Positions 1,817 to 33,304 of a DNA stretch of 42,165 nucleotides are shown here, piece by piece. How positions within the stretch are numbered: the stretch's first letter is position 1; each line of letters opens with the position of its first letter. Below the pieces are notes generated by a model. It did not search any database, was not told the DNA's origin, and worked only from the letters and a program-made list of their open reading frames with translations. Location: positions 1 through 42,165 of the IMG/VR virus record IMGVR_UViG_3300029116_000014; one strand, 5' to 3'. A program made the translations under genes and the position numbers. Source of the stretch: a virus.

Positions 1817-4078
1817 ATGGGAACAAACAAAATTATTTATCTGGACAGGGAGTTTACTGCAACAGATGTAACGGCCGGGAACGTGTATCAATCGCGTTCC
1901 CCGGTCGCATCGTCACAGGAAGTTGATACATTCAATTTTGACATCAGCAGCGACGATACAAGCCTAACCGATTTCATCCGCAACACGCCTCTGACATTCT
2001 TCCATGACGATGAACAGATGGGCATTTTCTACGTGCAGAAAATCAGCCGAACGTCCATCAACACCTATCATTTCGCCTGCACGTCTACCGTCGGTCTGCT
2101 TGACGAGACCTACCATGACGGCGGCATTTACACAGGTGAAACCGTAAAAGAGGTTTGCGAGGACATTTGCAGTCCGCTGACGGTTTATACCAAAACGAAC
2201 TTGCAGAACATCAAGCTCTACGGTTGGCTTCCCATCGCAACGCGGCGTGAAAACCTCACGCAGGTGCTTTTCGCGATTGGCGCAACGTTCAAGGTTGACT
2301 TTGACGGTGCAATTCGCATTGAAGGTCTGTGGAGCGGCGAGGCAAGCGCAATCGACGCAAGCGAAATCTACGCAAGCGGTACGGTTGATTACGCAACGCC
2401 TGTTACCGAGGTAATCGTAACCGAACACGCCTATTCGCAGAGCGCAACGGAAACGACAGAGCTTTTCAAGGGCACAACGTCAGCAGGCGACAAAATCACC
2501 TTCGACGAACCGTGCTACGACCTCTCGGCATCTGGCTTTTCCATTCTTGCAAGCGGTGCAAATTGGGCAACGGTTTCGGCAGGTTCGGGCGCGCTGACGG
2601 GCAAGAAGTACACGCACGTTACCCGGCAGGTAATGCAGCAGATTAAACCGAAAACACGCGAACTCGTTACGCAGTCCGACAATACGGTTAAGGTAGAGAA
2701 CGCAACGCTCGTATCTCTCGTAAATGCAACGGCAGTCGCAGAACGCCTTGCCGAGTATTACAGCCACAACGAACGTATCAATTACAAAATCGCGGTTAAA
2801 CGTGAAACCCCCGGTGATGTAGTGAAGATTGCGCATCCTTACGGCGGTACAGTCTCCGGCTGCATTGAAAGTGCGGATATTACGGTGTCCGGTAAACTTG
2901 CAGCAGAGGAAAGCGTGCTGATTGATTATTTCCCGCCGGATATTGGTGTGCAGGAATATTACGACACGGTCGAAGTTCTGACCAAAGATGGAACGTGGGC
3001 TGTGCCGGAGAATGTGACGAGTATTCGTGTAGTGCTGATTGGGGGAGGGTGCGGAGGAAATCCGGGAAACAAGGGCGGTGAATGTACCGAATATGCAGGC
3101 AATTATAGCCTGACGCATACGACGCTTACCGATTACACCGAATATCAGGAAGGCTACGGCCTGTATTACGGAGGAGAGGGCGGCGACGGCGGTCAGGGCG
3201 GTCTGGGTGGCAAAATCATGCAGGCGACGCTCGATGTATCCGAAGGAGACGTGTTTAACGTTGCAATCGGCAAGGGCGGAACGGGTAAAGTTTTCGGCGC
3301 GAATGACGATAGCCATAACGGCGGCGCAACCACGTTCGGCACATTCACATCCGCTGACGGCTCGCCAAACCCATACGGCTATGTTGATACTATTAACGGC
3401 ACGGTCTATGGCGGAACGGGTGGGCAAGGCTTAAAGGGCGGAAAAGGCGGCGGCGCGACACGTGACGCTGACTGGCCACAAATTACGTATTCTCCCGGCG
3501 ACTCGTTTGGAGATAATCAACCGGGCGCGAATGGCGAAGAAAGCACCGAATACGGTAGTTTTTTGGTGCATGACAGCAGTGTCGAGCACGAAAAGGTGTG
3601 GGCGGTTGGTATCGGTGAAGCAGGCGGCGGCGCAGGCGGCGGCGCGGCTTATGGAGCTAATGGCGGAGACGGCAGTAACGGCAGTGCATATGCCCGCGGC
3701 AGTGCGTCATCTATTCACGCACGTGCATATGCAGGCAAAGGCGGCACAGGCGCAACCCCGCTTCCGCCTGCTGCGCAAACGCAAATCGGCTATGGCGGCA
3801 TAGGCGGCAACGGTGGCGGTGGCGCAGGTTCGGCAGGTTACGCTATTGGTAGCCGCCGCGTTCCTAAAAAATACGCATATTCTGGCACGTGGGATGTTTA
3901 CGGAAACGATAACAAATCGAAAAACGGAGAGGGCGGCAACGGCTCCAACGGCGGCGACGGTGCACCCGGCTGCGTGCTCATCTATTACCGTGTATACCGT
4001 GCAAGCTCTGCCGGACGGTTTGTCACCCGTGACGGCAAAGGCTTTAATGAGAAATTCACAAGAAAGGTGGTTGTGTAA
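1817..4078 (+). CDS. Tail tip protein (Tal-like N-terminal half) with a glycine-rich C-terminal half
   Basis: 753-aa ORF after the TMP. The N-terminal ~380 aa resemble gp27-like/Tal tail tip proteins. The C-terminal half is packed with Gly runs (VVLIGGGCGGNPGNKGG, YGGEGGDGGQGGLGG, GEAGGGAGGGAAYGANGGDGSNGS, GYGGIGGNGGGGAGSAGY, NGEGGNGSNGGDGAPGCVLIYY). Confidence 0.75.
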   Translation: MGTNKIIYLDREFTATDVTAGNVYQSRSPVASSQEVDTFNFDISSDDTSLTDFIRNTPLTFFHDDEQMGIFYVQKISRTSINTYHFACTSTVGLLDETYHDGGIYTGETVKEVCEDICSPLTVYTKTNLQNIKLYGWLPIATRRENLTQVLFAIGATFKVDFDGAIRIEGLWSGEASAIDASEIYASGTVDYATPVTEVIVTEHAYSQSATETTELFKGTTSAGDKITFDEPCYDLSASGFSILASGANWATVSAGSGALTGKKYTHVTRQVMQQIKPKTRELVTQSDNTVKVENATLVSLVNATAVAERLAEYYSHNERINYKIAVKRETPGDVVKIAHPYGGTVSGCIESADITVSGKLAAEESVLIDYFPPDIGVQEYYDTVEVLTKDGTWAVPENVTSIRVVLIGGGCGGNPGNKGGECTEYAGNYSLTHTTLTDYTEYQEGYGLYYGGEGGDGGQGGLGGKIMQATLDVSEGDVFNVAIGKGGTGKVFGANDDSHNGGATTFGTFTSADGSPNPYGYVDTINGTVYGGTGGQGLKGGKGGGATRDADWPQITYSPGDSFGDNQPGANGEESTEYGSFLVHDSSVEHEKVWAVGIGEAGGGAGGGAAYGANGGDGSNGSAYARGSASSIHARAYAGKGGTGATPLPPAAQTQIGYGGIGGNGGGGAGSAGYAIGSRRVPKKYAYSGTWDVYGNDNKSKNGEGGNGSNGGDGAPGCVLIYYRVYRASSAGRFVTRDGKGFNEKFTRKVVV

Positions 4079-5097
4079 TGCCTGATACTTATACATCACA
4101 GTTTAGCGGCGAAGAAATTGACTCTGCGCTGAGAGCTGCACATATTATCTCCGGTGCAGATACGCCCGCTGCGCTGCGTGAGAAATTGGAGATTTACGGC
4201 AGTAATACGGCGTTATCCCCTACCGACCCCACCACAGTAGAAACCGCCCTGAAATACCGCACAAACCCCAATCTGCTCGATAACTGGTACTTCGGCAGAC
4301 CGGTGAACCAGAGAGGGCAGGTGGAGTATACGGGGGAATGGAAGTACACCATTGACAGGTGGGAGATTTCGGAAGGGACACTGACTGTGAATGATGGCTC
4401 TATTTCTCATAGTAACGGTTATTTACTCCAGCCGTTTTCGGATGAGTTCTCGGCCTTACTTAAAGAAAAACTTATAACTCTGAGTTTTCTTTATGCAAAT
4501 GGTTCTTTAGAGTCAGCATCAGCCACCATACCGTCCACGTGGGGGACTTGGGAAGGAATAATCGATCATGAGTCTATTCACCTCATTGGTATCAACAATG
4601 GCAACAGGCTATGGGTAACGAATACGGGCAATACTCCCCTCCTCGCCGCCAAGCTCGAACTCGGCTCCACCCAGACCCTTGCACACAAAGAGGGTGACAA
4701 GTGGGTGCTAAATGAAATCCCTGACTTCGGGGAGCAGCTGAGAAGGTGCACGTACTATGCAGAAAAAATAGAAGATGGAAATACGCCTGTTATTACGAAT
4801 GCTACATTTATTCCAGCTGGTGCTACGAGCGCAACATTTGTTCTGCCATACGAAAGAAAACGTACACCTCCGTCAATCCGCTTTAACGATGTGAGTAACT
4901 ATCGAGTTGTTGTCCGCTCCATGTCTGGAAACACAAGTGCTTTCGGTATATCAAACATATCGATTCTTGACGTTGGCACAACTAAAGCGGCCGTGCTTGT
5001 AACTTTTAGTAGTGCTACATCACAAGATTGGTATGGCTTTTTACAGAGGTCTGATAATACAACTGGCGGATACGCCTTTATTTCCGCCGACCTGTAA
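4078..5097 (+). CDS. Tail fibre / receptor-binding protein
   Basis: The start overlaps the preceding stop (TAATG). The N-terminus YTSQFSGEEIDSAL and the internal KLELGSTQTLAHKEGDKW...PDFGEQLRRCTYY motif are typical of Firmicute phage fibre proteins. Base composition is mosaic. Confidence 0.7.
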   Translation: MPDTYTSQFSGEEIDSALRAAHIISGADTPAALREKLEIYGSNTALSPTDPTTVETALKYRTNPNLLDNWYFGRPVNQRGQVEYTGEWKYTIDRWEISEGTLTVNDGSISHSNGYLLQPFSDEFSALLKEKLITLSFLYANGSLESASATIPSTWGTWEGIIDHESIHLIGINNGNRLWVTNTGNTPLLAAKLELGSTQTLAHKEGDKWVLNEIPDFGEQLRRCTYYAEKIEDGNTPVITNATFIPAGATSATFVLPYERKRTPPSIRFNDVSNYRVVVRSMSGNTSAFGISNISILDVGTTKAAVLVTFSSATSQDWYGFLQRSDNTTGGYAFISADL

Positions 5098-5109
5098 GGA
5101 GGTGACACC

Positions 5110-5466
5110 ATGCAAACCCCAAAATCCCGTGTATACGTCCTCTGCGACAGTGAAAGCCGTGTTTTGCGGCTCGAAGGAGAGTATTCCCTCCCAGCAAACC
5201 TCGACGGATGGACGAAAATTGATGAAGGCTATGGCGATAGATTTTCGCTCGCGCAGAGCCATTATCTCGATAAGCCGCTCTACGACGGCGCGGTTCTGCG
5301 CTATAAGCTCGTAGACGGCAAGGTCGTAGAGCGCACTGCCGAGGAAATCGAGGCAGATAAGGCGGCGTTACCTAAACCCGAGCCAACCGCAGAGGACGAC
5401 ACAAACGCTATGATGGTAGACCACGAATACAGGTTAACCCTGCTTGAACTGGGTCTCAACGAATGA
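5110..5466 (+). CDS. XkdW-like hypothetical protein (tail fibre accessory position)
   Basis: 118-aa ORF with a GGAGGTG SD, lying between the fibre gene and the XkdX-like gene as in PBSX-type clusters. Confidence 0.5.
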   Translation: MQTPKSRVYVLCDSESRVLRLEGEYSLPANLDGWTKIDEGYGDRFSLAQSHYLDKPLYDGAVLRYKLVDGKVVERTAEEIEADKAALPKPEPTAEDDTNAMMVDHEYRLTLLELGLNE

Positions 5467-16288: not shown

Positions 16289-16450
16289 ATGGTTATCAAC
16301 CCCGTACTTTTCGGCGTACTCGCCTGCATCTTCACGCAGCTCGTGCTGCTGTTCGGGTGGGGCTTTTACCACCGCGTTCTCAAGGACGAGCTGAACAAGC
16401 GAAAGACGCTTTTGCTGAAAGCCGCTCAGATGCGCTGTGAGCGCCGCTAA
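16289..16450 (+). CDS. Small membrane protein (53 aa), paralogue of the 15566 peptide
   Basis: AGGAGG SD. MVINPVLFGVLACIFTQLVLLFGWGFYHRVLKDELNKRKTLLLKAAQMRCERR. Confidence 0.5.
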   Translation: MVINPVLFGVLACIFTQLVLLFGWGFYHRVLKDELNKRKTLLLKAAQMRCERR

Positions 16451-16532
16451 GCACTCAGGCATGAAATTACATGCCGAGGGGTGCGAAAACGCGACACGCG
16501 CCGTCTGAGGGCGCGGAAAGGGGTGATACGCA

Positions 16533-16673
16533 ATGACCGACGGCATCAAGCGGCGGAACGTAATCCGCGAGATGCAGAAACGCACGATCGGCGAGGCGCT
16601 TTACTCGAAAAAGATCGGCAGGAAGCCGAACGCAAGCGCTAAGAAAATCGGCGTACTGCCAAAACGAGATTAG
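16533..16673 (+). CDS. Small basic protein (46 aa)
   Basis: ATG preceded by GGAAAGGGGTG. MTDGIKRRNVIREMQKRTIGEALYSKKIGRKPNASAKKIGVLPKRD. Confidence 0.35.
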   Translation: MTDGIKRRNVIREMQKRTIGEALYSKKIGRKPNASAKKIGVLPKRD

Positions 16674-16850
16674 CCGCGCAAGGGCAAGGCAAAGCGCAGC
16701 AGAGCATAGCAAGGGCAAGGCATGGCGAAGCAGAGCGAGGGCATAGCGAAGCAGAGCGAGGGCATAGCAACGCAGTGCACTGCAACGGCAAGGCATAGCA
16801 TTACACAGCTCAGCGAGGGCATAGCATGGCAAAGCTATGCGAGGGCAAAG
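16673..16850 (+). repeat. T-poor repeat block 3 (GCGAGGGCATAGC units, including a 21-bp tandem duplication)
   Basis: AGGGCA at 16681, 16712, 16738, 16759, 16816 and 16842. GCGAAGCAGAGCGAGGGCATA occurs twice in tandem (16725-16766). The block opens with the same GCCGCGCAAGGGCA 14-mer as 15819-15832. Confidence 0.85.
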
Positions 16851-16881
16851 CTTGAGGAACGAAACAGGAGGACAAAAAATC

Positions 16882-23086: not shown

Positions 23087-23281
23087 ATGACGCATGATTG
23101 CAGCGGTTGCGGCTATATGAAGTCGCTTGAAGATAATTCCGGAAGAACGATATATTTCTGTATGTTTGATCAGAGTCCGTTCTATTTGGAGGAAACTGGA
23201 ATTGACGGCGACTGTGAATTGGACGATTATGCAGAGGAAATTTATCGGAGAAGCGGAGAATGGGAGGAAAACAATGAATAA
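23087..23281 (+). CDS. Small Cys-rich hypothetical protein (64 aa)
   Basis: Internal ATG of ORF 22976..23281, preceded by AGGAGA. MTHDCSGCGYM...FCMF...GDCELDD. Confidence 0.45.
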   Translation: MTHDCSGCGYMKSLEDNSGRTIYFCMFDQSPFYLEETGIDGDCELDDYAEEIYRRSGEWEENNE

Positions 23282-23867
23282 AAAGTTTGAATTTACCGGA
23301 GAAACCAAAGTAATTTTAGGGCATACCCTGCATCGCATTCGGGCGTTGATTTCGTTCGGTGAAGTCGAAGCTGGGGAACTAGGCGGATGGATTGAAAAAG
23401 AGGAAAACCTTGATGCTTCCGGCAACGCATGGGTTTCCGGCGACGCACGGGTTTCCGGCGACGCACAGGTTTACGGCAACGCATGGGTTTCCGGCGACGC
23501 ACGGGTTTCCGGCGACGCACGGGTTTCCGGCAACGCATGGGTTTCCGGCGACGCACGGGTTTACGGCAACGCATGGGTTTCCGGCAACGCATGGGTTTCC
23601 GGCGACGCACGGGTTTACAAGCGCGGTGCGATTTTCTGGATTTCCAATGTTGGTTCGCGCGATGACACGGCAACTTTCTTCGCCTGCCGGGATAAAAAAA
23701 TCAAAGTAATTGTAGGTTGCTTCTTCGGAGATTTGGACGAGTTTGCCGCCGCAGTACAGAAAACGCAAGGAGATAACACACACGCCAAGGTATACCGCCT
23801 TGCAATCGAAATGGCGAAGGAACGCATTAAGATGGATGATATGCCGGAGGAAAGCAATGACGGTTGA
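23274..23867 (+). CDS. Hexapeptide-repeat (predicted beta-helix) protein
   Basis: 197 aa. The central part is made of 6-aa units (GNAWVS/GDARVS/GDAQVY), about 11 units, encoded by an 18-bp tandem DNA repeat at about 23410-23620. Confidence 0.7.
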   Translation: MNKKFEFTGETKVILGHTLHRIRALISFGEVEAGELGGWIEKEENLDASGNAWVSGDARVSGDAQVYGNAWVSGDARVSGDARVSGNAWVSGDARVYGNAWVSGNAWVSGDARVYKRGAIFWISNVGSRDDTATFFACRDKKIKVIVGCFFGDLDEFAAAVQKTQGDNTHAKVYRLAIEMAKERIKMDDMPEESNDG

Positions 23868-27108: not shown

Positions 27109-27347
27109 ATACAGCGACAAGGTCCGGCGTTACTTATTATGGTGATACGCCGTGCCGGAACTGCGCTTACTGGCGGACGCTCGGAAACTATAAAAATCTG
27201 AAGCTGTGGGCGTGCCACTACGCATTGGTTAACCGGCATTCGAGGGGATGCGAGCCGGGCGAAAGGTGCACAAAAAGAACAGAAAGCTACCGCAGACGGA
27301 TAGCTTTCAAACACGACGGAAGCACCGAGGAGATTACAAGCCGATGA
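27105..27347 (+). CDS. Cys-rich small protein with no usable start codon in frame (possible 1-nt indel after ATG 27139)
   Basis: An 80-codon open frame (…GDTPCRNCAYWRTLGNYKNLKLWACHYALVNRHSRGCEPGERC…) ends in a TGA that overlaps the ATG of the next gene (ATGA at 27344-27347). It contains no ATG or GTG in frame, and its only TTG is late and lacks an SD. ATG 27139 is one base out of phase. Confidence 0.4.
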   Translation, partial: LNTATRSGVTYYGDTPCRNCAYWRTLGNYKNLKLWACHYALVNRHSRGCEPGERCTKRTESYRRRIAFKHDGSTEEITSR

Positions 27348-27757
27348 CAGCGAAAGAATGGCTGATGCGCGGGCGCGCACTGGAAAAAACGATTACAGCC
27401 TTGCAGGAGGCGCGGAAACGCGCCTATGCACGGGCAACGGGCGCAACCGCGCCGGTAAGGGATACGCCGGGCGGAAAAGGGAGCACGGGGAACAAGGCAG
27501 ACCCCTACATCGAACTGGGCGAGAAGATCGCAGAGAAAGAAAACGAGCTTGCGGAAATATACGGCGAGATTGTGCGCGTGCTGGGCGAAATGCGGGATAA
27601 CGAACTGCAAACGCTCCTGCTTGAACGTTACGTGAACGGCGCAACATGGGCGCAGACGGCGCGGCGGCTGCATTACAGCGAGGCGCACGTGAAAGGCTAC
27701 ATGCACAGAATGGCACTGAATGCTGTGGATAAGTTAATACCCCACAATACGCAATAA
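27344..27757 (+). CDS. Sigma-like late transcriptional activator (coiled-coil N-terminus plus region-4-type HTH)
   Basis: Internal ATG of ORF 27248..27757. 137 aa. LLLERYVNGATWAQTARRLHYSEAHVKGYMHRMALNAVDKL resembles phage RinA/ArpU/DUF1492-type activators. It lies upstream of the packaging module. Confidence 0.65.
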   Translation: MTAKEWLMRGRALEKTITALQEARKRAYARATGATAPVRDTPGGKGSTGNKADPYIELGEKIAEKENELAEIYGEIVRVLGEMRDNELQTLLLERYVNGATWAQTARRLHYSEAHVKGYMHRMALNAVDKLIPHNTQ

Positions 27758-27779
27758 TGTGATATACTGATATCGTGGA

Positions 27780-28530
27780 AGAGCTCCAAGGGAGCAAAAC
27801 CACGGCATTCACGGGTTGATAAATTCCGGTTATGTCCTCCTAATTCTCTCCCCTGCTTCGGCGGGGGACACGCTCCAAAGGCTGCACGAGGCCGGAGGGG
27901 CTCACACTTCCTTTCGCCCAAGGCATTCCCTAATGAGACGGGAAACCGTCTCAGCCTGTCCGCTGCGTCTGCACGAGGGCGCGCGGGCTCTTTGACTCTC
28001 GGGAATACAGTTCAAGGAAACGCGGCAGAGATGCCGCACATGCTCCAAAGCCTGCATGAGGGCGGCGGGGCAAAAAAAGACAGCCGAACGGCTGCCCATA
28101 ATCTGACGGCTCGGAAAGACGAGCACGGGCGCAGCTTACGGAACGGCGCGCCGACACCTATTCTGACGGCCCGGAAAGACGGGCATCTGTTTGCGAACTT
28201 TGCCGGACTGCCCGGCAGGCCTTGCGCAGGGCCAAAGCGTCAGTACACAGCGCAGCAGCACGTGTATCAGGGAGTAATTCCCTGCAACGGGGTAGCGCCC
28301 TGCGGTGAAAGTCCGCCGGTTTGCAGGCCGATAACTGCGCGCGAGGGGTTCAAAATTCGAACGTCCTATTTTGTAGCAGCCCCTGAGCGCAAGCCGGGAA
28401 ACCGTCCGTAAAGCCGGACGCAAGGCGCAGCGATACGCGCACATACCGCGCAAGCGGTATACATGCAGCCCAAAGTTGATACACGGTGCAATTCCGTGTG
28501 GCTGCACCTCCAATTAGTCATAAGTAAAAG
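27780..28530 (+). ncRNA. Candidate large structured non-coding RNA (class unassigned)
   Basis: About 750 nt with no credible ORF. On the + strand it has many short perfect helices capped by UUCG/GAAA/GCAA/GUAA-type loops. Two hairpin families are repeated with compensatory base changes. The region ends at a strong terminator hairpin. Confidence 0.6.
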
Positions 28531-28568
28531 CACCTCCCCGGGATGGCTTCGGGAAGGTGCTTTTGCTT
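28527..28568. terminator. Bidirectional intrinsic terminator hairpin
   Basis: AAAGCACCTCCCCG-GGATGGCTT-CGGGAAGGTGCTTT forms a 14-position stem with one mismatch. An A-run lies upstream and a T-run downstream, so it can terminate both the + RNA and the convergent minus-strand cassette. Confidence 0.8.
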
Positions 28569-28614
28569 AGATGTTGCTTAGATGTTGCTTAGATGTTGCT
28601 TAGATGTTGCTTAG
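28565..28614. repeat. Tandem 11-bp repeat GCTTAGATGTT x 4.5
   Basis: There are four perfect copies (28565-28608) and a partial fifth. The partial copy contains the stop codon (28611-28613, minus strand) of the 53-aa ORF. Confidence 0.9.
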
Positions 28615-28772
28615 CGGTTATCATAAGCGCATAGAGCCTCGCACAGCTCGCGCGTCGGGCACTGAGAGCAGTCGCACTCCGAAATGATAACGTTTTCGCA
28701 CAGTGCGCGAGGATCGGCCATAAAAACGGCCTCGGCTGCTCGGTAGTCCTCAGGGGTAATGATGTTATACAT
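28611..28772 (-). CDS. Small Cys-rich protein (53 aa)
   Basis: MYNIITPEDYRAAEAVFMADPRALCENVIISECDCSQCPTRELCEALCAYDNR. The start lies 3 nt after the upstream gene's stop. It is below the ORF-track cutoff. Confidence 0.5.
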   Translation of the reverse strand: MYNIITPEDYRAAEAVFMADPRALCENVIISECDCSQCPTRELCEALCAYDNR

Positions 28773-28775
28773 GGG

Positions 28776-29042
28776 TTACGCCTCCAGCCGGTAGGACATC
28801 GCGCTGTTAAGCAGTGCGAAAGTGATGCACTCGTAAAATTCGCCGCGGGTGATTCCCTCCGGCGCGCCGGTGCCCTGCTCGATCAGGTGGGCGACGGTCT
28901 CGACATTATGGGCGGTCGGCTCGTGAGAAGATACCCAGTCGAGCATATGCTCGTAATCGTTGCACGTCATGGACGTGCAGAAGTCGTTTTCGATGCATGC
29001 CTTGCGGACGCTGTACGCGCTCCAGCTTGCCTTGATGGTCAT
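28776..29042 (-). CDS. Hypothetical protein (88 aa)
   Basis: AAAGGAAG SD on the minus strand. No family recognised. Confidence 0.55.
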   Translation of the reverse strand: MTIKASWSAYSVRKACIENDFCTSMTCNDYEHMLDWVSSHEPTAHNVETVAHLIEQGTGAPEGITRGEFYECITFALLNSAMSYRLEA

Positions 29043-29093
29043 TTTATATCTTCCTTTCTGCGGGGTTATACCGCCCCGCCCGGTGTAGGTGGA

Positions 29094-29639
29094 TCAGTCA
29101 ATAGCGCAGTAGGTAAGGGCATCATAGCCCATATCAGCAAGCGCCTTGGTCATTACCTCGGCAGCGGTCTCGCGCTTGTATGCCTGACCGGGAATGTGGA
29201 AGCAGATAACCCAACGCCGGTTAAAGCACTTCCACTCAAAGCAGCCGCATCCGGCCTCCTTGCAAGCCTGCTCAATCTTGGCGGACTGCCAGCGCGGGAG
29301 CAGGAGCGAGGGCGCATCTAAATTGCAGGCGCCGCCGTCCTCAACTTGTGCGGCTGCGGCTTTGCCGATCTCGTACACCTTGCGCAGATCGTCGCGGAGC
29401 TTGGCGTACTTGCCGGTAAGCGGCTTGGGCGCTGCGGGCTTGGTGTCTGCCGGGTAGGCGGTCAGCAGCTCGTCAAAGTCTGCGATTGCGTCCGCCTCGG
29501 TGCGTGCCGTGCGGCAGTCGATCTCGTGGCCGTTGGGGTACAGGAGCATAGTCTCGTATTTGCCCGGAGTGAGTTCGCAGGTGTCGAGCATAACGCGGCG
29601 GCCGTTGTGTTTGTACTCGGTGTGTTTGATGGTGTTCAT
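29094..29639 (-). CDS. Hypothetical protein (181 aa) with a Cys-rich C-terminal domain
   Basis: ATG at 29639, preceded by GGAGG (8-nt spacing). The C-terminus has DGGACNLDAPSLLLPRW...KEAGCGCFEWKCFNRRWVICFHIPGQAYKRETAAEVMTKALADMGYDALTYCAID. Confidence 0.6.
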   Translation of the reverse strand: MNTIKHTEYKHNGRRVMLDTCELTPGKYETMLLYPNGHEIDCRTARTEADAIADFDELLTAYPADTKPAAPKPLTGKYAKLRDDLRKVYEIGKAAAAQVEDGGACNLDAPSLLLPRWQSAKIEQACKEAGCGCFEWKCFNRRWVICFHIPGQAYKRETAAEVMTKALADMGYDALTYCAID

Positions 29640-29703
29640 GGTGTGTACCTCCAAAATTAAAATTTATGGGTGCGGGCTTTAAGGGTGAACCCGCGAGAAC
29701 CGT

Positions 29704-30048
29704 TTAGCTGTGCATGATGCAACCGCTGTGGCTGCGGTCGAAGTCACCTTTGCACTTGCCGTCCTTGTCGTACCAACTGCCGGTGCTCTCTGCGGCAAAG
29801 CGGGAGCAGGAGAGGCACATGGGGTTTACAAGGCAGAAGCGGCGAAGGTCGCTGTCTTCCGGTGCTTCCTGATCGAGCCATGCGTCAAAGCCTTCCGGGT
29901 AACGCTTCTCGATTTCGTCCATCAGCCAACCGCGCGTGATTGCGGTTTCTTCACTGTTGCTCAGGTGCTCGGTCATCTCCCAGCAGCCAAAGAGCTGCTC
30001 TGCGGTCAGGCTTGCGATCTTTGCGGTTGCTTTCTCGGTTGCGGTCAT
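29704..30048 (-). CDS. Hypothetical protein (114 aa), Cys-rich C-terminus
   Basis: ATG at 30048, preceded by AAAGGAAG. The C-terminus has CLVNPMCLSCSRF...GKCKGDFDRSHSGCIMHS. Confidence 0.55.
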   Translation of the reverse strand: MTATEKATAKIASLTAEQLFGCWEMTEHLSNSEETAITRGWLMDEIEKRYPEGFDAWLDQEAPEDSDLRRFCLVNPMCLSCSRFAAESTGSWYDKDGKCKGDFDRSHSGCIMHS

Positions 30049-30092
30049 ATTGATTACTTCCTTTCGGCGTTCGTTTCCTTTACTGTGACTAT

Positions 30093-30198
30093 AGTATAAT
30101 ATATTTGCGCAAGTATAGCAATGGGCAAAATAACTATATTTGCGCAAGTATATTTGTGGGTTATGTATATTTACACAAACATATCTGAGGCGTATAAT
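30093..30198. promoter_or_regulatory. Divergent promoter region with two identical 18-bp near-palindromic operators
   Basis: TATATTTGCGCAAGTATA occurs at 30100-30117 and 30135-30152 and is 16/18 self-complementary. The + promoter is TTTACA (30170-30175), 17 nt, TATAAT (30193-30198). The minus promoter is TTGCTA (30121-30116), 17 nt, TATACT (30098-30093). Operator copy 1 lies inside the minus-promoter spacer. Confidence 0.65.
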
Positions 30199-30223
30199 AG
30201 CCATCGTTAGGAGGTGCTGTTAT

Positions 30224-30424
30224 ATGCCATCCAGCAAGGCGCAGCAGAAAGCAACCAATAAGTACATCAACAAGGCTTATGACCGGGTTAATTTAACCCT
30301 GCCGAAAGGCAAGAAAGAAGAGATCAAATCCCATGTGGAAGGCCGGAGCGAAAGCGTGAATGGCTTTATCGCCCGTGCGATTGATTGCCAGATGGCGCGA
30401 GACAAAGAGGAGGACAAAGCGTAG
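30224..30424 (+). CDS. Ribbon-helix-helix (Arc/CopG-like) small DNA-binding protein
   Basis: Internal ATG of ORF 30140..30424, preceded by AGGAGGTG. 66 aa. DRVNLTLPKGKKEEIKSHVEGRSESVNGFIARAI fits a beta-strand-helix-helix layout. Confidence 0.6.
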   Translation: MPSSKAQQKATNKYINKAYDRVNLTLPKGKKEEIKSHVEGRSESVNGFIARAIDCQMARDKEEDKA

Positions 30425-31131
30425 TGTATGATAGAGTAGATGCAAGTAGCGGAGAGAGCCTGTGCCGTACTATGGCGGAGGAATGCGATACCGCGATCTT
30501 AGCATTTTCCACAGGTAAGGACAGCATTGCAGCGTGGTTGCAGCTGAGAAAATATTTCAAGCATGTAATCCCGTATTATTGTTACACCGTGCCAGGTCTG
30601 GAATTCGTCGAAAACAGCCTCGCATACTATGAGGATTTTTTCGGCACTCACATTTACAGGCTGCCGCACAGATCGTTGTACCGCATGCTGCGGAATCTGG
30701 TATTCCAATCGCCGGAGCATGTAACCAAGATCGAGGCGCTGGACTTGCCGGGCGAAGAATATGATGATGCCGAGATCGGCGAGATCATCCGCGAATGCAA
30801 GCGACTGCCGGAATGCGTATACACTGCGACCGGCGTTAGAATGGCAGACAGTCCTATGCGGCGTATTGCCATGAAAACACATGGAGCGATCAACCACAAT
30901 GCAAAGCGGTTCTATCCGGTGTTCGACTGGGTAAAAGCCGACCTGCTGCGCGAATTTGATGCAAGCGGTGTTCGCCTGCCGGTAGACTATAAGCTGTTCG
31001 GCAGAACGTTCGATGGTATTGATTATCGGTTCTTGAAGCCGATCAAGGAGAATTTCCCGAGGGATTACGAAAAGATCATCACATGGTTCCCGCTGGCGGA
31101 ACTGGAGTTATTCAGGAGGGGTGAGCTGTAA
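30424..31131 (+). CDS. PAPS reductase / PP-loop ATPase family protein
   Basis: The GTG start overlaps the upstream TAG (TAGTG), with AGGAGG 8 nt upstream. ILAFSTGKDSIAAW is a PP-loop-type SGGKDS-like motif. It lies next to the terminase genes. Confidence 0.7.
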   Translation: MYDRVDASSGESLCRTMAEECDTAILAFSTGKDSIAAWLQLRKYFKHVIPYYCYTVPGLEFVENSLAYYEDFFGTHIYRLPHRSLYRMLRNLVFQSPEHVTKIEALDLPGEEYDDAEIGEIIRECKRLPECVYTATGVRMADSPMRRIAMKTHGAINHNAKRFYPVFDWVKADLLREFDASGVRLPVDYKLFGRTFDGIDYRFLKPIKENFPRDYEKIITWFPLAELELFRRGEL

Positions 31132-31496: not shown

Positions 31497-31559
31497 AAAA
31501 GACGAAAAGGGCTGTCTTTCGGGATGGCTCTTTTTCATACCCGAAAGGAGGTGTAAGGC

Positions 31560-31682
31560 ATGGGCAATGGTTATGGTAGTAGCAGACTTGCGAACCGTGG
31601 ACGCGTTGGCAATCGTCGCCGTAGCGTAGCGGTTGGCCGTCGTGCGGCTGGCGCTCGTGGCGCCCGCTCGTCCTCAACCTAA
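31560..31682 (+). CDS. Micro-ORF: 40-aa Arg/Gly-rich highly basic peptide
   Basis: AAAGGAGGTG SD. MGNGYGSSRLANRGRVGNRRRSVAVGRRAAGARGARSSST. It is followed by a terminator. Confidence 0.35.
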   Translation: MGNGYGSSRLANRGRVGNRRRSVAVGRRAAGARGARSSST

Positions 31683-31702
31683 GCAAATACAACTCAACAG
31701 AT

Positions 31703-31737
31703 AAAGCACCGAGGTTTTGCCCGGTGCTTTTCTTTTG
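31703..31737 (+). terminator. Rho-independent terminator upstream of terS
   Basis: AAGCACCG-loop-CGGTGCTT forms an 8-bp stem, followed by TTTCTTTTG. Confidence 0.7.
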
Positions 31738-31755: not shown

Positions 31756-32073
31756 ATGCCTAGAGGCAGACCGAAGAAAGCTATTGACCTTGACGCTGTG
31801 CAGGAGCTTGCAAGCGAGGGCAATACGCAAGAAGAAATTTCAAAGGCGCTCGGTTTTTCGCGTGCGACGTTCCACAATCGCAAGGAAGTAACCGAGGCTT
31901 ATTATAAAGGCGTTGCAGAAATGAAGCTGAGCCTGCGACACTGGCAGTTTAACGCTGCCCGTGGCGGTAACATCCAGATGCTTATCTGGTTGGGCAAGCA
32001 GTACCTCGGACAGCGCGACACAGTAGAGGAAAAGATCGAAAGCGAAGGCGTGAAGGTGATTATCGATGTCTGA
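31756..32073 (+). CDS. terS: Terminase small subunit (HTH type)
   Basis: MPRGRPKKAIDLDAVQELASEGNTQEEISKALGFSRATFHNR... It lies immediately upstream of the large subunit and overlaps it. Confidence 0.8.
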   Translation: MPRGRPKKAIDLDAVQELASEGNTQEEISKALGFSRATFHNRKEVTEAYYKGVAEMKLSLRHWQFNAARGGNIQMLIWLGKQYLGQRDTVEEKIESEGVKVIIDV

Positions 32074-33304
32074 GTTGAAGCTCTCGCAGATCATCGGACC
32101 GGCATTTTACGCCGTTGCGCACGATGTGTTTGCACATGGGCACACGCATTACGATGAGAGCGGCGGCCGTGGCTCGCTGAAATCGTCGTTTGTGTCGATT
32201 GTCGTTCCGCTGCTGCTTATCCACAACCCCGGAACGCATGCGCTTGTGTTACGCAAGGTTGCAAACACCATCCGCGATAGTGTATACGCACAGTATGTAT
32301 GGGCAATTGGTGAGCTGGGCATGGCTGACTACTGGGACGCGAAGGTATCGCCGATGGAGCTGATATATCGCCCGACCGGACAGAAAATCATGTTTCGCGG
32401 CGCTGATGACCCGATGAAGATCAAGTCAATCAAGGTTCCGTTTGGTTATATTGCTGTTACGCATTTCGAGGAGAAAGACCAGTTCTCAGGACGCGCGGAA
32501 ATCCGAACGATCTTGCAGTCTACAATGCGCGGCGGTGATAAGTATTGGAACTTTGAGAGTTATAACCCTCCGATCAGCCGCGACAACTGGGCGAACAAGG
32601 ATAGTTTAGAAGAACGCCCTGACCGTCTCTGCCACCGCAGCACGTACCTTGAAGCGCCGCGCGAGTGGTTGGGCGATCAGTTTATTTATGAGGCGGAGCA
32701 CCTAAAACTGACGAACGAACGAGCGTATCAGCATGAATACCTCGGCATTCCGGTTGGCACGGGTGGCAATGTCTTTGAAAACCTTGAACTGCGAGAAATC
32801 ACAGATGATGAGGTGGCAACGTTCGATCGTATCTATCAAGGCGCTGACTGGGGATGGTTCCCCGACCCGTTCGCTTTTATCCGCGTCCACTACGACAGAG
32901 CGCGTGAGACGGTGTATTTTATCGATGAGATATACAAAAACAAGCTGAGTAACGAGGAAAGCGCCGGTATTATCATGGAGCGCGGCTATAATGATACGTT
33001 TATCACCTGCGACAGTGCAGAGCCAAAAAGCGTTGCAGACTACCGCGCTATGCGACTGCCTGCCAAAGAGGCCGTGAAGGGTCCCGGCAGCGTCGAGTAC
33101 GGCATGAAGTGGCTACAGCGCAGGACACTTGTCATCGACCGCAAGCGAACGCCGCACGCCTATGATGAGTTTGTGAACTATGAGTATGAGCGCGACAAGG
33201 ACGGCGAGATCATCAGCGGCTATCCAGATGAAAAGAACCATCTGATTGACGCCACGAGATACGCCCTTGAGCGCGTTTACAGAAGAATGGGAGTGATTGC
33301 TTGA
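32066..33304 (+). CDS. terL: Terminase large subunit (PBSX/Terminase_3-like)
   Basis: 412 aa. Walker A-like ESGGRGSLKSS, a nuclease-half pattern (GADWGW...DPFAF, CDSAEPKS, HLIDATRYAL), and the expected position. Confidence 0.9.
   Translation: MSELKLSQIIGPAFYAVAHDVFAHGHTHYDESGGRGSLKSSFVSIVVPLLLIHNPGTHALVLRKVANTIRDSVYAQYVWAIGELGMADYWDAKVSPMELIYRPTGQKIMFRGADDPMKIKSIKVPFGYIAVTHFEEKDQFSGRAEIRTILQSTMRGGDKYWNFESYNPPISRDNWANKDSLEERPDRLCHRSTYLEAPREWLGDQFIYEAEHLKLTNERAYQHEYLGIPVGTGGNVFENLELREITDDEVATFDRIYQGADWGWFPDPFAFIRVHYDRARETVYFIDEIYKNKLSNEESAGIIMERGYNDTFITCDSAEPKSVADYRAMRLPAKEAVKGPGSVEYGMKWLQRRTLVIDRKRTPHAYDEFVNYEYERDKDGEIISGYPDEKNHLIDATRYALERVYRRMGVIA

Follow-up and report, generated by a model that had tools for sequence, protein, structure and literature searches.

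An RNA gene behind a late regulator

The DNA analysed here, called the window throughout, is the IMG/VR virus record IMGVR_UViG_3300029116_000014 over its whole length of 42,165 nucleotides (nt). Identification of genes across the window marks it as the genome of a temperate phage, whose host belongs to the human-gut Clostridia. On the plus strand, directly behind the gene of an LtrA-like late transcriptional regulator, lies the subject of this report (Table 1): the interval of about 27775-28568 is, as judged by comparative sequence analysis, a genuine gene for a modular structured non-coding RNA of ~800 nt that was uncatalogued before. With strong comparative support, it represents a new class of large structured phage RNA.

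The regulator matched the PHROGs family phrog_36 ('transcriptional regulator', E = 3.7e-15) and, weakly, the Pfam domain Sigma70_r4_2 (E = 0.002); its SigX-like matches were weak, and a comparison of its profile with solved structures returned weak matches only (SigF region 4, E = 0.07). The family and domain assignments agree with the initial annotation, which had called the gene late-activator-like. Its stop codon abuts the predicted promoter of the RNA, in which the TG and hexamer positions T1, A2 and T6 are invariant in 25/25 distinct 5' ends, including that of a mini form described below (L025), and in which the hexamer occurs as TATAAT, TACAAT, TATTAT or TATAGT. The exact TGTGNTATANT has a single occurrence in the window, and no second copy of the promoter motif was found before the late genes. 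The element TGTGATATACT probably works as an extended -10 promoter of the sigma-A, Gram-positive type, with transcription predicted to start at ~27774-27776. At the other end, a long hairpin with a conserved GAUGG loop motif is the candidate intrinsic terminator; with its 5'-side A-tract it could be bidirectional. A perfect 11-nt tandem repeat, present in 0 to 5 copies among near-identical relatives, separates it from the stop codon of the next, convergent gene.

Coding potential and fold

Coding capacity and folding were analysed for 27758-28570 on the plus strand. Two open reading frames (ORFs) cross this interval, 27992-28411 (+, 139 amino acids) and 28136-28513 (-, 125 amino acids), neither of which matched a family in Pfam or PHROGs. 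In a comparison of the window with the 15 other homologue clusters in the frames of both ORFs, codon positions 1/2/3 took substitutions evenly (e.g. 33/29/32 and 49/46/50); indels among the clusters were mostly not multiples of three, and the longest ORF shifted strand, frame and position between variants. The region is not protein-coding, as the initial annotation had maintained.

The minimum free energy of the plus-strand RNA was -355.6 kcal/mol, compared with -304 +/- 6.6 kcal/mol for dinucleotide shuffles (z = -7.8), while the reverse complement reached z = -3.7 only.

Homologues and compensatory changes

Homologous loci were collected with the regulator gene and protein as anchor, together with conserved DNA strings, from IMG/VR, a set of one genome per species, Logan and ENA contigs, and JGI and ENA metagenomes. 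The resulting 94 loci (L numbers designate individual loci and contigs) included 39 different complete copies of the RNA, 813-1127 nt long, which group into 16 clusters; all are on gut-phage contigs and from human-gut samples. The genome scan named metagenome-assembled genomes of Clostridia and Oscillospiraceae and the isolate Intestinibacillus massiliensis. Nothing similar came up when the region was compared by blastn with 50,697 deposited phage records. A pattern search for the 3' domain added only chance matches inside a capsid-like gene; within IMG/VR, the large RNA is therefore confined to one phage lineage.

Compensatory changes are already displayed by plain alignments. As RNAalifold misplaced several helices on a plain MAFFT alignment, two covariance models, R1 for the 5' domain and R2 for the 3' domain, were built from hand-drawn structures and all homologues re-aligned to them. 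In R1 (33 pairs), 95.4% of cells were paired, compared with 43-48% in slid controls; 15 pairs were changed on both sides vs 6.5 in column shuffles, with 74 double-change cells vs 21.6, values that 0/500 shuffles reached. The corresponding figures for R2 (29 pairs) were 99.0% paired cells (slid controls 30-47%), 13 vs 6.4 pairs changed on both sides and 65 vs 14.3 double-change cells, again reached by 0/500 shuffles. The hairpin of module 2 (see below), of which 31 distinct copies were available, was 97.4% paired and had 24 double-change cells vs 5.6 in shuffles (0/500). Covariation in two separately modelled domains and one module thus supports a conserved RNA fold. Many pairs of R1 and R2 are G-U in the plus orientation; read from the opposite strand, each would become an A-C mismatch, which identifies plus as the sense strand.

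The initial annotation had proposed a large structured RNA, read from the plus strand, with compensatory changes between its paralogous hairpin copies. The first point is upheld by the folding energy and by the covariation in two domains and module 2, the second by the orientation of the G-U pairs, and the compensatory changes hold across the homologues. Covariation and the lack of a coding signal, together with a predicted promoter and terminator at its borders, characterise the region as a conserved structured non-coding RNA.

Architecture of the RNA

The elements of the RNA are listed in Table 1. All hairpins and repeats that had been described at the outset were recovered in place, the UUCG hairpin at 27849-27868 and the helix CGUCCG..CGGACG at 28403-28420 among them, as were three hairpins with UGCAYGAG loops and two of the UCUGACG/GAAAGA type.

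Table 1. Features of the RNA locus in the window, and copies of module 2 near tRNA genes of other contigs
Feature	Position	Strand	Basis or remark
Late transcriptional regulator gene, LtrA-like, sigma-70 region-4-like	27344-27757	+	phrog_36, Sigma70_r4_2
Putative extended -10 promoter TGTGATATACT	27758-27768	+	TG 27760-27761, -10 hexamer 27763-27768, no -35 element
P1, 5'-terminal helix GUGG/CCAC with inner hairpin GCUCC-AAG-GGAGC	27775-27803	+	R1
P2, variable two-tier hairpin	27804-27836	+	R1
Single-stranded CU-rich tract CUCCUAAUUCUCU	27837-27849	+	CCUCC spans 27836-27840
P3, 7-bp hairpin, UUCG loop	27850-27867	+	R1 helix 5
Module 1a: 5-bp outer helix, internal loop, 3-bp inner helix, invariant 8-nt loop UGCACGAG	27872-27901	+	R1
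7-bp hairpin, GAAA tetraloop, GAGACGG-GAAA-CCGUCUC	27935-27952	+	between modules 1a and 1b
Module 1b, loop UGCACGAG	27958-27988	+	outer helix GUCCG/CGGGC
Module 1c, loop UGCAUGAG	28042-28071	+	R1 match 28038-28071, 30.8 bits, E = 1.6e-6
Hairpin A, CAGCC-GAAC-GGCUG, after A-rich linker	28081-28094	+	all variants
Module 2a: UCUGACG and 5-bp hairpin, GAAAGA loop	28102-28124	+	module-2 covariation
Central hairpin, conserved loop ..YRCGGAACG (CGGAAC)	28128-28152	+	between modules 2a and 2b
Module 2b	28162-28184	+	module-2 covariation
Middle-domain hairpins	28268-28316	+	alignment reading
 GUAA hairpin CAGGGA-GUAA-UUCCCUG	28268-28284	+	
 CGGGG/CCCUG		+	
 T-loop-like GCGG-UGAAAGU-CCGC	28302-28316	+	
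3' domain, five elements	28389-28512	+	R2
 GNRA hairpin	28395-28404	+	
 Hairpin	28405-28418	+	
 Invariant GCGC hairpin	28425-28440	+	
 GNRA hairpin AUACCGC-GCAA-GCGGUAU	28443-28460	+	
 Predicted tRNA-like minihelix, acceptor-like stem UGCAGCC/GGCUGCA	28464-28470/28500-28506	+	followed by CCUCCA
 Minihelix, T-arm-like ACACGG-UGCAAUU-CCGUGU	28481-28499	+	enclosed by acceptor-like stem
Predicted intrinsic terminator, long G+C-rich hairpin and UUUU	28527-28568	+	present in every homologue
11-nt tandem repeat TTGCTTAGATG x 4.7, perfect	28563-28614		TRF score 104
Module 2 near tRNA gene, L033	4617-4639	-	
Module 2 near tRNA gene, L035	4057-4079		
Module 2 near tRNA gene, L102	1155-1177		
Module 2 near tRNA gene, L109	6253-6275		
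Module 2 near tRNA gene, L115	3055-3077		
Module 2 near tRNA gene, L128	4522-4544		

P1 begins ~7 nt past the -10 hexamer; pairing reaches 99% in its first helix (R1 helix 1) and 97.6% in its second (R1 helix 2), with exchanges of GC to AU, UA to AU and UA to CG. P2 (R1 helices 3 and 4; 88% and 96% paired, many G-U) is shortened or absent in L024, L049 and L025. The CU-rich tract is present in most variants, and reads CCUCCUUUCUA in L025 (2480-2495) and CACUCCUUUCUAA in short leaders of more distant relatives (including L063 and L065); we take it to resemble the 3' end of Firmicutes 16S ribosomal RNA, the anti-Shine-Dalgarno sequence, of which CCUCCUUUCUA and CACUCCUUUCUAA would be nearly the exact end. 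In the window, CU-rich stretches lie at 27836-27849 and 28506-28512. P3 is 93% paired, with changes on both sides in 7/7 pairs.

Module 1 is represented by 47 distinct copies, in which inner and outer helices covary around the UGCAYGAG loop. For module 1a (R1 helices 6 and 7), 97.7% and 94.9% of cells are paired, and the middle inner pair is GC in 24, CG in 23 and UG in 3 sequences. The GAAA hairpin between modules 1a and 1b changes from GAGACGG/CCGUCUC to GAGGCGG/CCGCCUC in L006 and L092, with G-U intermediates, and carries a GCGA loop in L068. Hairpin A has a variable loop on a mostly invariant stem. The inner helix of the central hairpin is GCAGC/GCUGC, GCGGC/GCCGC or UGCGGCC/GGCUGCA across the variants and appears in the window in a shifted register, GGCGC/GCGCC. 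The middle domain (28190-28390) was judged by alignment reading only, which showed CAGGGA/UCCCUG vs CGCGGA/UCCGCG (L058) and GCGG/CCGC vs GCUG/CAGC.

The 3' domain ends in a minihelix which, as modelled, is shaped like the upper half of a tRNA, a 7-bp acceptor-like stem stacked on a 6-bp stem: the helices are coaxial over ~12 bp, the 7-nt loop is of the T-loop type (U1, A5) and the 3' strands are contiguous. Its helices (R2 helices 5 and 6) are 98.9% and 100% paired, with 7 double-change pairs, and its loops read UGCAAUU, UGCGAUU, UGCAAGC or UGCAAAU.

Inspection by eye led to the rejection of three long-range contacts. L006, L058 and L068 do not preserve a helix of 28190-28196 with 28388-28394 (GUUUGCG/CGCAAGC), a pseudoknot between the terminator-loop GAUGG and CCGUCC/CCAUCG of the 3' domain fits some variants and not L049, and the L015 and L024 types can no longer pair their UGCAUG loops with CAUGCA (28460-28466).

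A hairpin linked to phage tRNA genes

The hairpin of module 2 follows the pattern UCUGACGG-NNN-GGAAAGAC-NNN-C. The pattern TCTGACGGNNNGGAAAGACNNNC was found at 41 places in unrelated IMG/VR contigs outside the RNA family; the three free stem positions were complementary in 38 of these 41, compared with a chance expectation of ~5%, and formed many different stems. In at least six contigs (L033, L035, L102, L109, L115 and L128), a tRNA gene follows module 2 at a distance of 5-8 nt. The motif is absent from the Rfam families and may be a new tRNA-leader or processing element. Two ribozyme assignments were discarded: CUGACGG misfits the hammerhead core CUGANGA and no GAAA follows stem II, and by inspection the L033 spacer cannot form the nested P1/P3 pseudoknot of a minimal HDV-like or theta ribozyme.

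Positions 150-520 of L037 hold the C-terminal end of a regulator homologue and, behind it, an extended -10 promoter of the same type, a terminal hairpin, a GGAGG/CCUCU hairpin, module 2, an unusual tRNA-like gene (7-bp acceptor stem, D arm, long insertion, T-loop UGCAAAU) and a terminator; neither ARAGORN nor the Rfam tRNA model called this tRNA-like gene. Three further observations were made on contigs with module 2. A DUF805b RNA (RF02914, 37.3 bits) at L098 4988-5054(-) lies 12 nt downstream of a module-2 copy, and two phage tRNA genes have long insertions: the one at L035 ~3830-3990 has a ~40-nt insert in the anticodon region, and the other, 122 nt long at L102 1182-1303, is matched end to end by the tRNA model.

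A proposed path from short leader to large RNA

Relatives of the RNA differ by whole modules: some have a fourth copy of module 1, two (L006 and L067) a third copy of module 2, some an extra domain, and some have lost P2 or the 1a-1c segment. The optional extra domain of ~110-330 nt, absent from the window, occurs in L006, L015, L024, L049, L058 and L066-L068 (for an example see L010 ~4960-5160), and contains, besides additional hairpins, three motifs of GAGAG type (CGGAGAGC, CGAGAGG, CGAGAGCC), without an Rfam match in L049.

The mini form L025, on a prophage of Intestinibacillus massiliensis Marseille-P3216 (NZ_LT707029), is ~270 nt long and directly 3' of the gene of a regulator only 42% identical to that of the window. 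It has the same promoter type, P1, CCUCCUUUCUA, the UUCG hairpin, one module 1, a GNRA hairpin, a minihelix with GGUGCAA and the terminator, and scores 63.8 bits with R1. Distant relatives with regulators 31-40% identical, including deposited 'Heliusvirales' gut phages, have the promoter, a leader of 50-90 nt and a terminator only; these short units (L060, L062-L065, L095) stand directly before HNH or terS. R1 fails to detect the short leaders L060-L065 and L026, which are therefore homologous to the large RNA by position alone. Given that a short leader or mini form occupies the same place in relatives, the RNA of the window would be a greatly expanded late-leader transcript.

All loci adjoin the ltr gene on its 3' side, and terS or HNH follows directly on the same strand only in the short-leader relatives. 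In the large forms, the first gene after the terminator is convergent in 16/16 clusters, and what lies between the RNA and terS is a variable cassette; with a convergent gene always behind its terminator, the large RNA appears as a self-contained, insulated transcription unit. Beside the leader of L065 (~3150-3420) and of L025 (~3100-3300), a small hydrophobic ORF converges on a short structured transcript with a consensus promoter, a cassette that looks from its sequence like a type I toxin-antitoxin pair.

Other features of the phage genome

The window encodes an integrase (10200-11282, -), a CI-like repressor, an antirepressor, an ERF recombinase, a DNA methylase and a PBSX-type large terminase (32066-33304); an N-like early gene was not identified. 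The RNA terminator is followed by four minus-strand genes (28611-30204), and the plus-strand late genes start only past this cassette and a divergent promoter region. That region (30090-30430), flanked on its other side by the cassette, contains 19-nt repeats (AGTATAATATATTTGCGCA x 3.3), and a consensus sigma-70-type promoter, TTTACA-17-TATAAT, is located at 30170-30198 between the cassette and the late genes. Behind it, from ~30226, starts a small ORF which, judged by sequence, we take for a ribbon-helix-helix repressor. Immediately 5' of terS, a small arginine/glycine-rich ORF (~31541-31683, MGNGYGSSRLANRGRVGNRRRS...) is surrounded by two terminator-like hairpins within 31498-31735.

Repeats were also recorded in two other places. 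At 23417-23616, an 18-nt repeat occurs 11 times (54-nt super-repeat) within ORF 23127-23867; its units code for the repeats of a YdcK beta-solenoid (Pfam PF18836) and thus belong to a protein rather than being iterons. In the early region, 15685-16855 contains several GCA/AGC-rich repeat arrays with periods of 11-33 nt.

What the RNA may do

Transcription would start at the extended -10 element on the regulator stop codon, giving an RNA that opens with a terminal hairpin, ends at the intrinsic terminator and is expressed together with the regulator or independently of it. The RNA may have arisen by insertion and duplication of autonomous hairpin modules inside a short promoter-leader-terminator unit positioned between the late regulator and the packaging genes. 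Our leading interpretation, to which we give not quite an even chance, and less to the mechanism taken alone, is a stand-alone RNA acting in trans as a multivalent platform of tRNA-precursor-like features. With low confidence as to detail, it would be a scaffold or decoy with several recognition elements, namely UGCAYGAG hairpins in 2-4 copies, UCUGACGG/GAAAGA hairpins in 2-3 copies and a mimic of the tRNA acceptor/T-arm, and thus an array of tRNA-precursor features without functional tRNAs. The partner of such an RNA would be a factor acting on phage tRNA precursors, such as a processing enzyme or a tRNA-directed host nuclease, for which it would serve as ligand, sink or substrate, and its single-stranded CCUCC tract, of anti-Shine-Dalgarno type, could also pair with ribosome-binding sites. 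We consider doubtful the bolder proposal that it founds a new class of giant phage RNAs, as a pseudo-tRNA array that is made from the late-leader slot and hijacks or decoys tRNA-processing or tRNA-targeting defence machinery in lytic growth, with the UCUGACGG/GAAAGA hairpin as a new, widespread signal for the processing or recognition of phage tRNAs.

Several observations weigh against this interpretation or its basis. Neither ARAGORN nor the Rfam tRNA model recognised the minihelix, and no tRNA or tmRNA was found in the window; no conserved CCA follows the acceptor-like stem, where the window has A-CCUCCA, L025 has ACCA and the L015 and L049 types differ. Module 2 is not specific to tRNAs, being found 7-35 nt upstream of protein ORFs as well. 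The family is narrow (~55 contigs, all human gut), and promoter, start site and RNA stability are predictions throughout. As the alignments were fitted to the models and the sequences are interrelated, the shuffle counts given above are not probabilities. Finally, the homologous slot of the distant relatives holds a leader directly 5' of late genes, which favours a role in cis.

A cis-acting late-operon leader is the main rival, with a real, if minor, share of our credence. Here the structures and the upstream regulator would set read-through of the terminator into the terminase and head genes, in parallel to the lambda PR'-6S RNA-tR' system with Q or to nut/put-type antitermination. Module 2, which presumably resembles lambda boxB in shape only (5-bp stem, purine-rich loop), would then be a hairpin for a protein to bind, as boxB is; it has conserved single-stranded sequence 5' of the hairpin and often lies just upstream of genes or tRNAs. 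The distant relatives combine the promoter type with a short terminated leader directly before HNH or terS, and the absence of a second promoter-motif copy before the late genes of the window is in keeping with such a role. The regulator belongs to the Ltr late-activator superfamily, described as a late-regulator family of Gram-positive phages that acts just upstream of terS; these proteins are, however, described as activators, not antiterminators (PMC3753634). Against a role in cis, convergent genes stand behind the terminator in each of the 16 large-form clusters, and in the window 1.6 kb of minus-strand genes and the promoter at 30170-30198 part it from the late genes. An alternative anti-terminator pairing was not found, and a leader of 800-1100 nt with a tRNA-like minihelix would be much more elaborate than any antitermination leader known.

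Self-assembly of the RNA into a homo-oligomeric particle of the ROOL/GOLLD kind, with the loops as contacts inside one molecule or between several and an architectural function, is rather improbable. Size and phage context match, the slot holds tRNAs in other phages, and the RNA has several GNRA tetraloops, T-loop-like hairpins and a self-complementary UGCA core in every variant of the module-1 loop; ROOL and GOLLD are themselves phage-associated, cage-forming RNAs (PMC12286853). However, there is no homology to ROOL, GOLLD or OLE, and variation of module copy number and sub-domains among close relatives makes for a poor fit to one precise quaternary architecture. The loops are invariant and so give no covariation for or against loop-loop pairing.

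Nor does it seem probable that the transcript is a polycistronic precursor from which endonucleases, those of tRNA processing or others, release several small stable RNAs as the active species by cutting at the minihelix and beside module 2. RNase P and RNase Z recognise the acceptor/T-arm geometry that the 3' minihelix has, module 2 stands 5-8 nt ahead of the tRNA 5' ends, the RNase P cleavage sites, in phage tRNA arrays, and the RNA is built of autonomous modules; yet the conserved order of domains and the terminal hairpins at 5' and 3' ends suggest that one molecule is under selection. A DNA-level element (packaging site, replication origin, recombination hot spot) or a decaying coding sequence is very improbable: the site does lie between early and packaging genes, where pac/cos sites and mobile cassettes are common, with modules duplicated or lost and a variable neighbouring cassette, but its compensatory helices with many G-U pairs in one orientation only, the difference in fold signal between strands, the conserved stable tetraloops (UUCG, GNRA) and the lack of a coding signature are those of an RNA.

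Few bacterial or phage RNAs of >500 nt with conserved folds are known (ribosomal RNAs, RNase P, introns, OLE, GOLLD, ROOL, raiA, HEARO), each of which opened structural or functional work, and the covariation of the RNA described here is unusually clear for its size. Three additions go beyond the initial annotation: the predicted extended -10 promoter in a late-leader slot, the tRNA-like 3' minihelix, and the recognition of one of its two hairpin families as a widespread tRNA-linked phage motif. The series of sizes at one position (50-90 nt, ~270 nt, 0.8-1.1 kb) suggests growth of a giant RNA from a leader by accretion of modules, and the mini form in the cultured host Intestinibacillus massiliensis makes experiments possible. 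The module-2 motif upstream of tRNA genes in many unrelated phages is perhaps a discovery in its own right. Should the RNA instead control late transcription, it would add a layer of antitermination type to the Ltr-regulated late switch of Gram-positive phages.

Relation to known RNAs and regulatory systems

Rfam 15 gave no match at gathering thresholds across the whole window, and only chance matches at E = 0.001 to 10 within 27600-28750 (Plastid-ycf2 on the minus strand, 28.8 bits vs a gathering threshold of 65.7; FMN, 13.2 vs 66.2). The mini form L025, the divergent large form L049 (E <= 5) and L037 likewise had chance matches only. The models of ROOL (RF03087) and GOLLD (RF01998) matched neither the window, nor the region at E <= 10, nor L049, and no match was obtained with OLE, HEARO/omega RNA, raiA, group I/II introns, RNase P, tmRNA, 6S, T-box and cobalamin. 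Strings like GGUGAAAGUCC had pointed to cobalamin, FMN and T-box riboswitches, which were dropped for want of Rfam support. The RNA is therefore not ROOL, GOLLD, OLE, HEARO, raiA, an intron, RNase P or a riboswitch as currently modelled, in line with the initial suggestion that it may form a class distinct from ROOL and GOLLD. As far as the accessible part of the literature on such large phage RNAs extends, only a 2023 catalogue of ~10,000 short candidate RNAs from IMG/VR was found, the accessible portion of which describes no such large RNA (PMC10690425); the catalogue may include fragments of the RNA of the window.

Sponge RNAs such as CsrB/RsmZ are similar in concept only, having hairpin arrays, invariant loops, covarying stems and variable copy number; the UGCAYGAG and GAAAGA loops differ from the GGA motif of CsrA sites. 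Likeness to tRNA and tRNA-like molecules (the tmRNA domain, YrlA Y RNAs, viral tRNA-like structures) lies in the acceptor-like stem of 6-7 bp on a 5-6-bp stem, in the 7-nt T-loop-like loop UGCRAnn (U1, A5), which recurs in the fuller cloverleaf-like gene of L037, and in module 2, common to the RNA and to the 5' flanks of phage tRNA genes. The minihelix differs in being without a D arm, an anticodon arm and a conserved CCA, and is missed by the Rfam tRNA, tmRNA and Y-RNA models.

With the lambda late leader (PR' - 6S RNA - tR'), the locus shares a promoter directly after a regulator gene and a short terminated leader RNA before late genes; in Stx phages, the late-leader region carries tRNAs as cargo. 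It differs from lambda in that the regulator is sigma-region-4-like (Ltr family) rather than Q or N, and in that the large form is followed by convergent genes. ROOL and GOLLD are comparable in being large (~0.6-0.8 kb), multi-domain and rich in GNRA-type hairpins, and in residing in Firmicutes phages or prophages, in or near the tRNA-gene slot, whereas the RNA of the window is built of repeated modules in variable copy number, sits directly after a late-regulator gene and has a tRNA-like 3' minihelix. Among known systems, ROOL and GOLLD are thus the closest in kind and the lambda late leader the closest in position.

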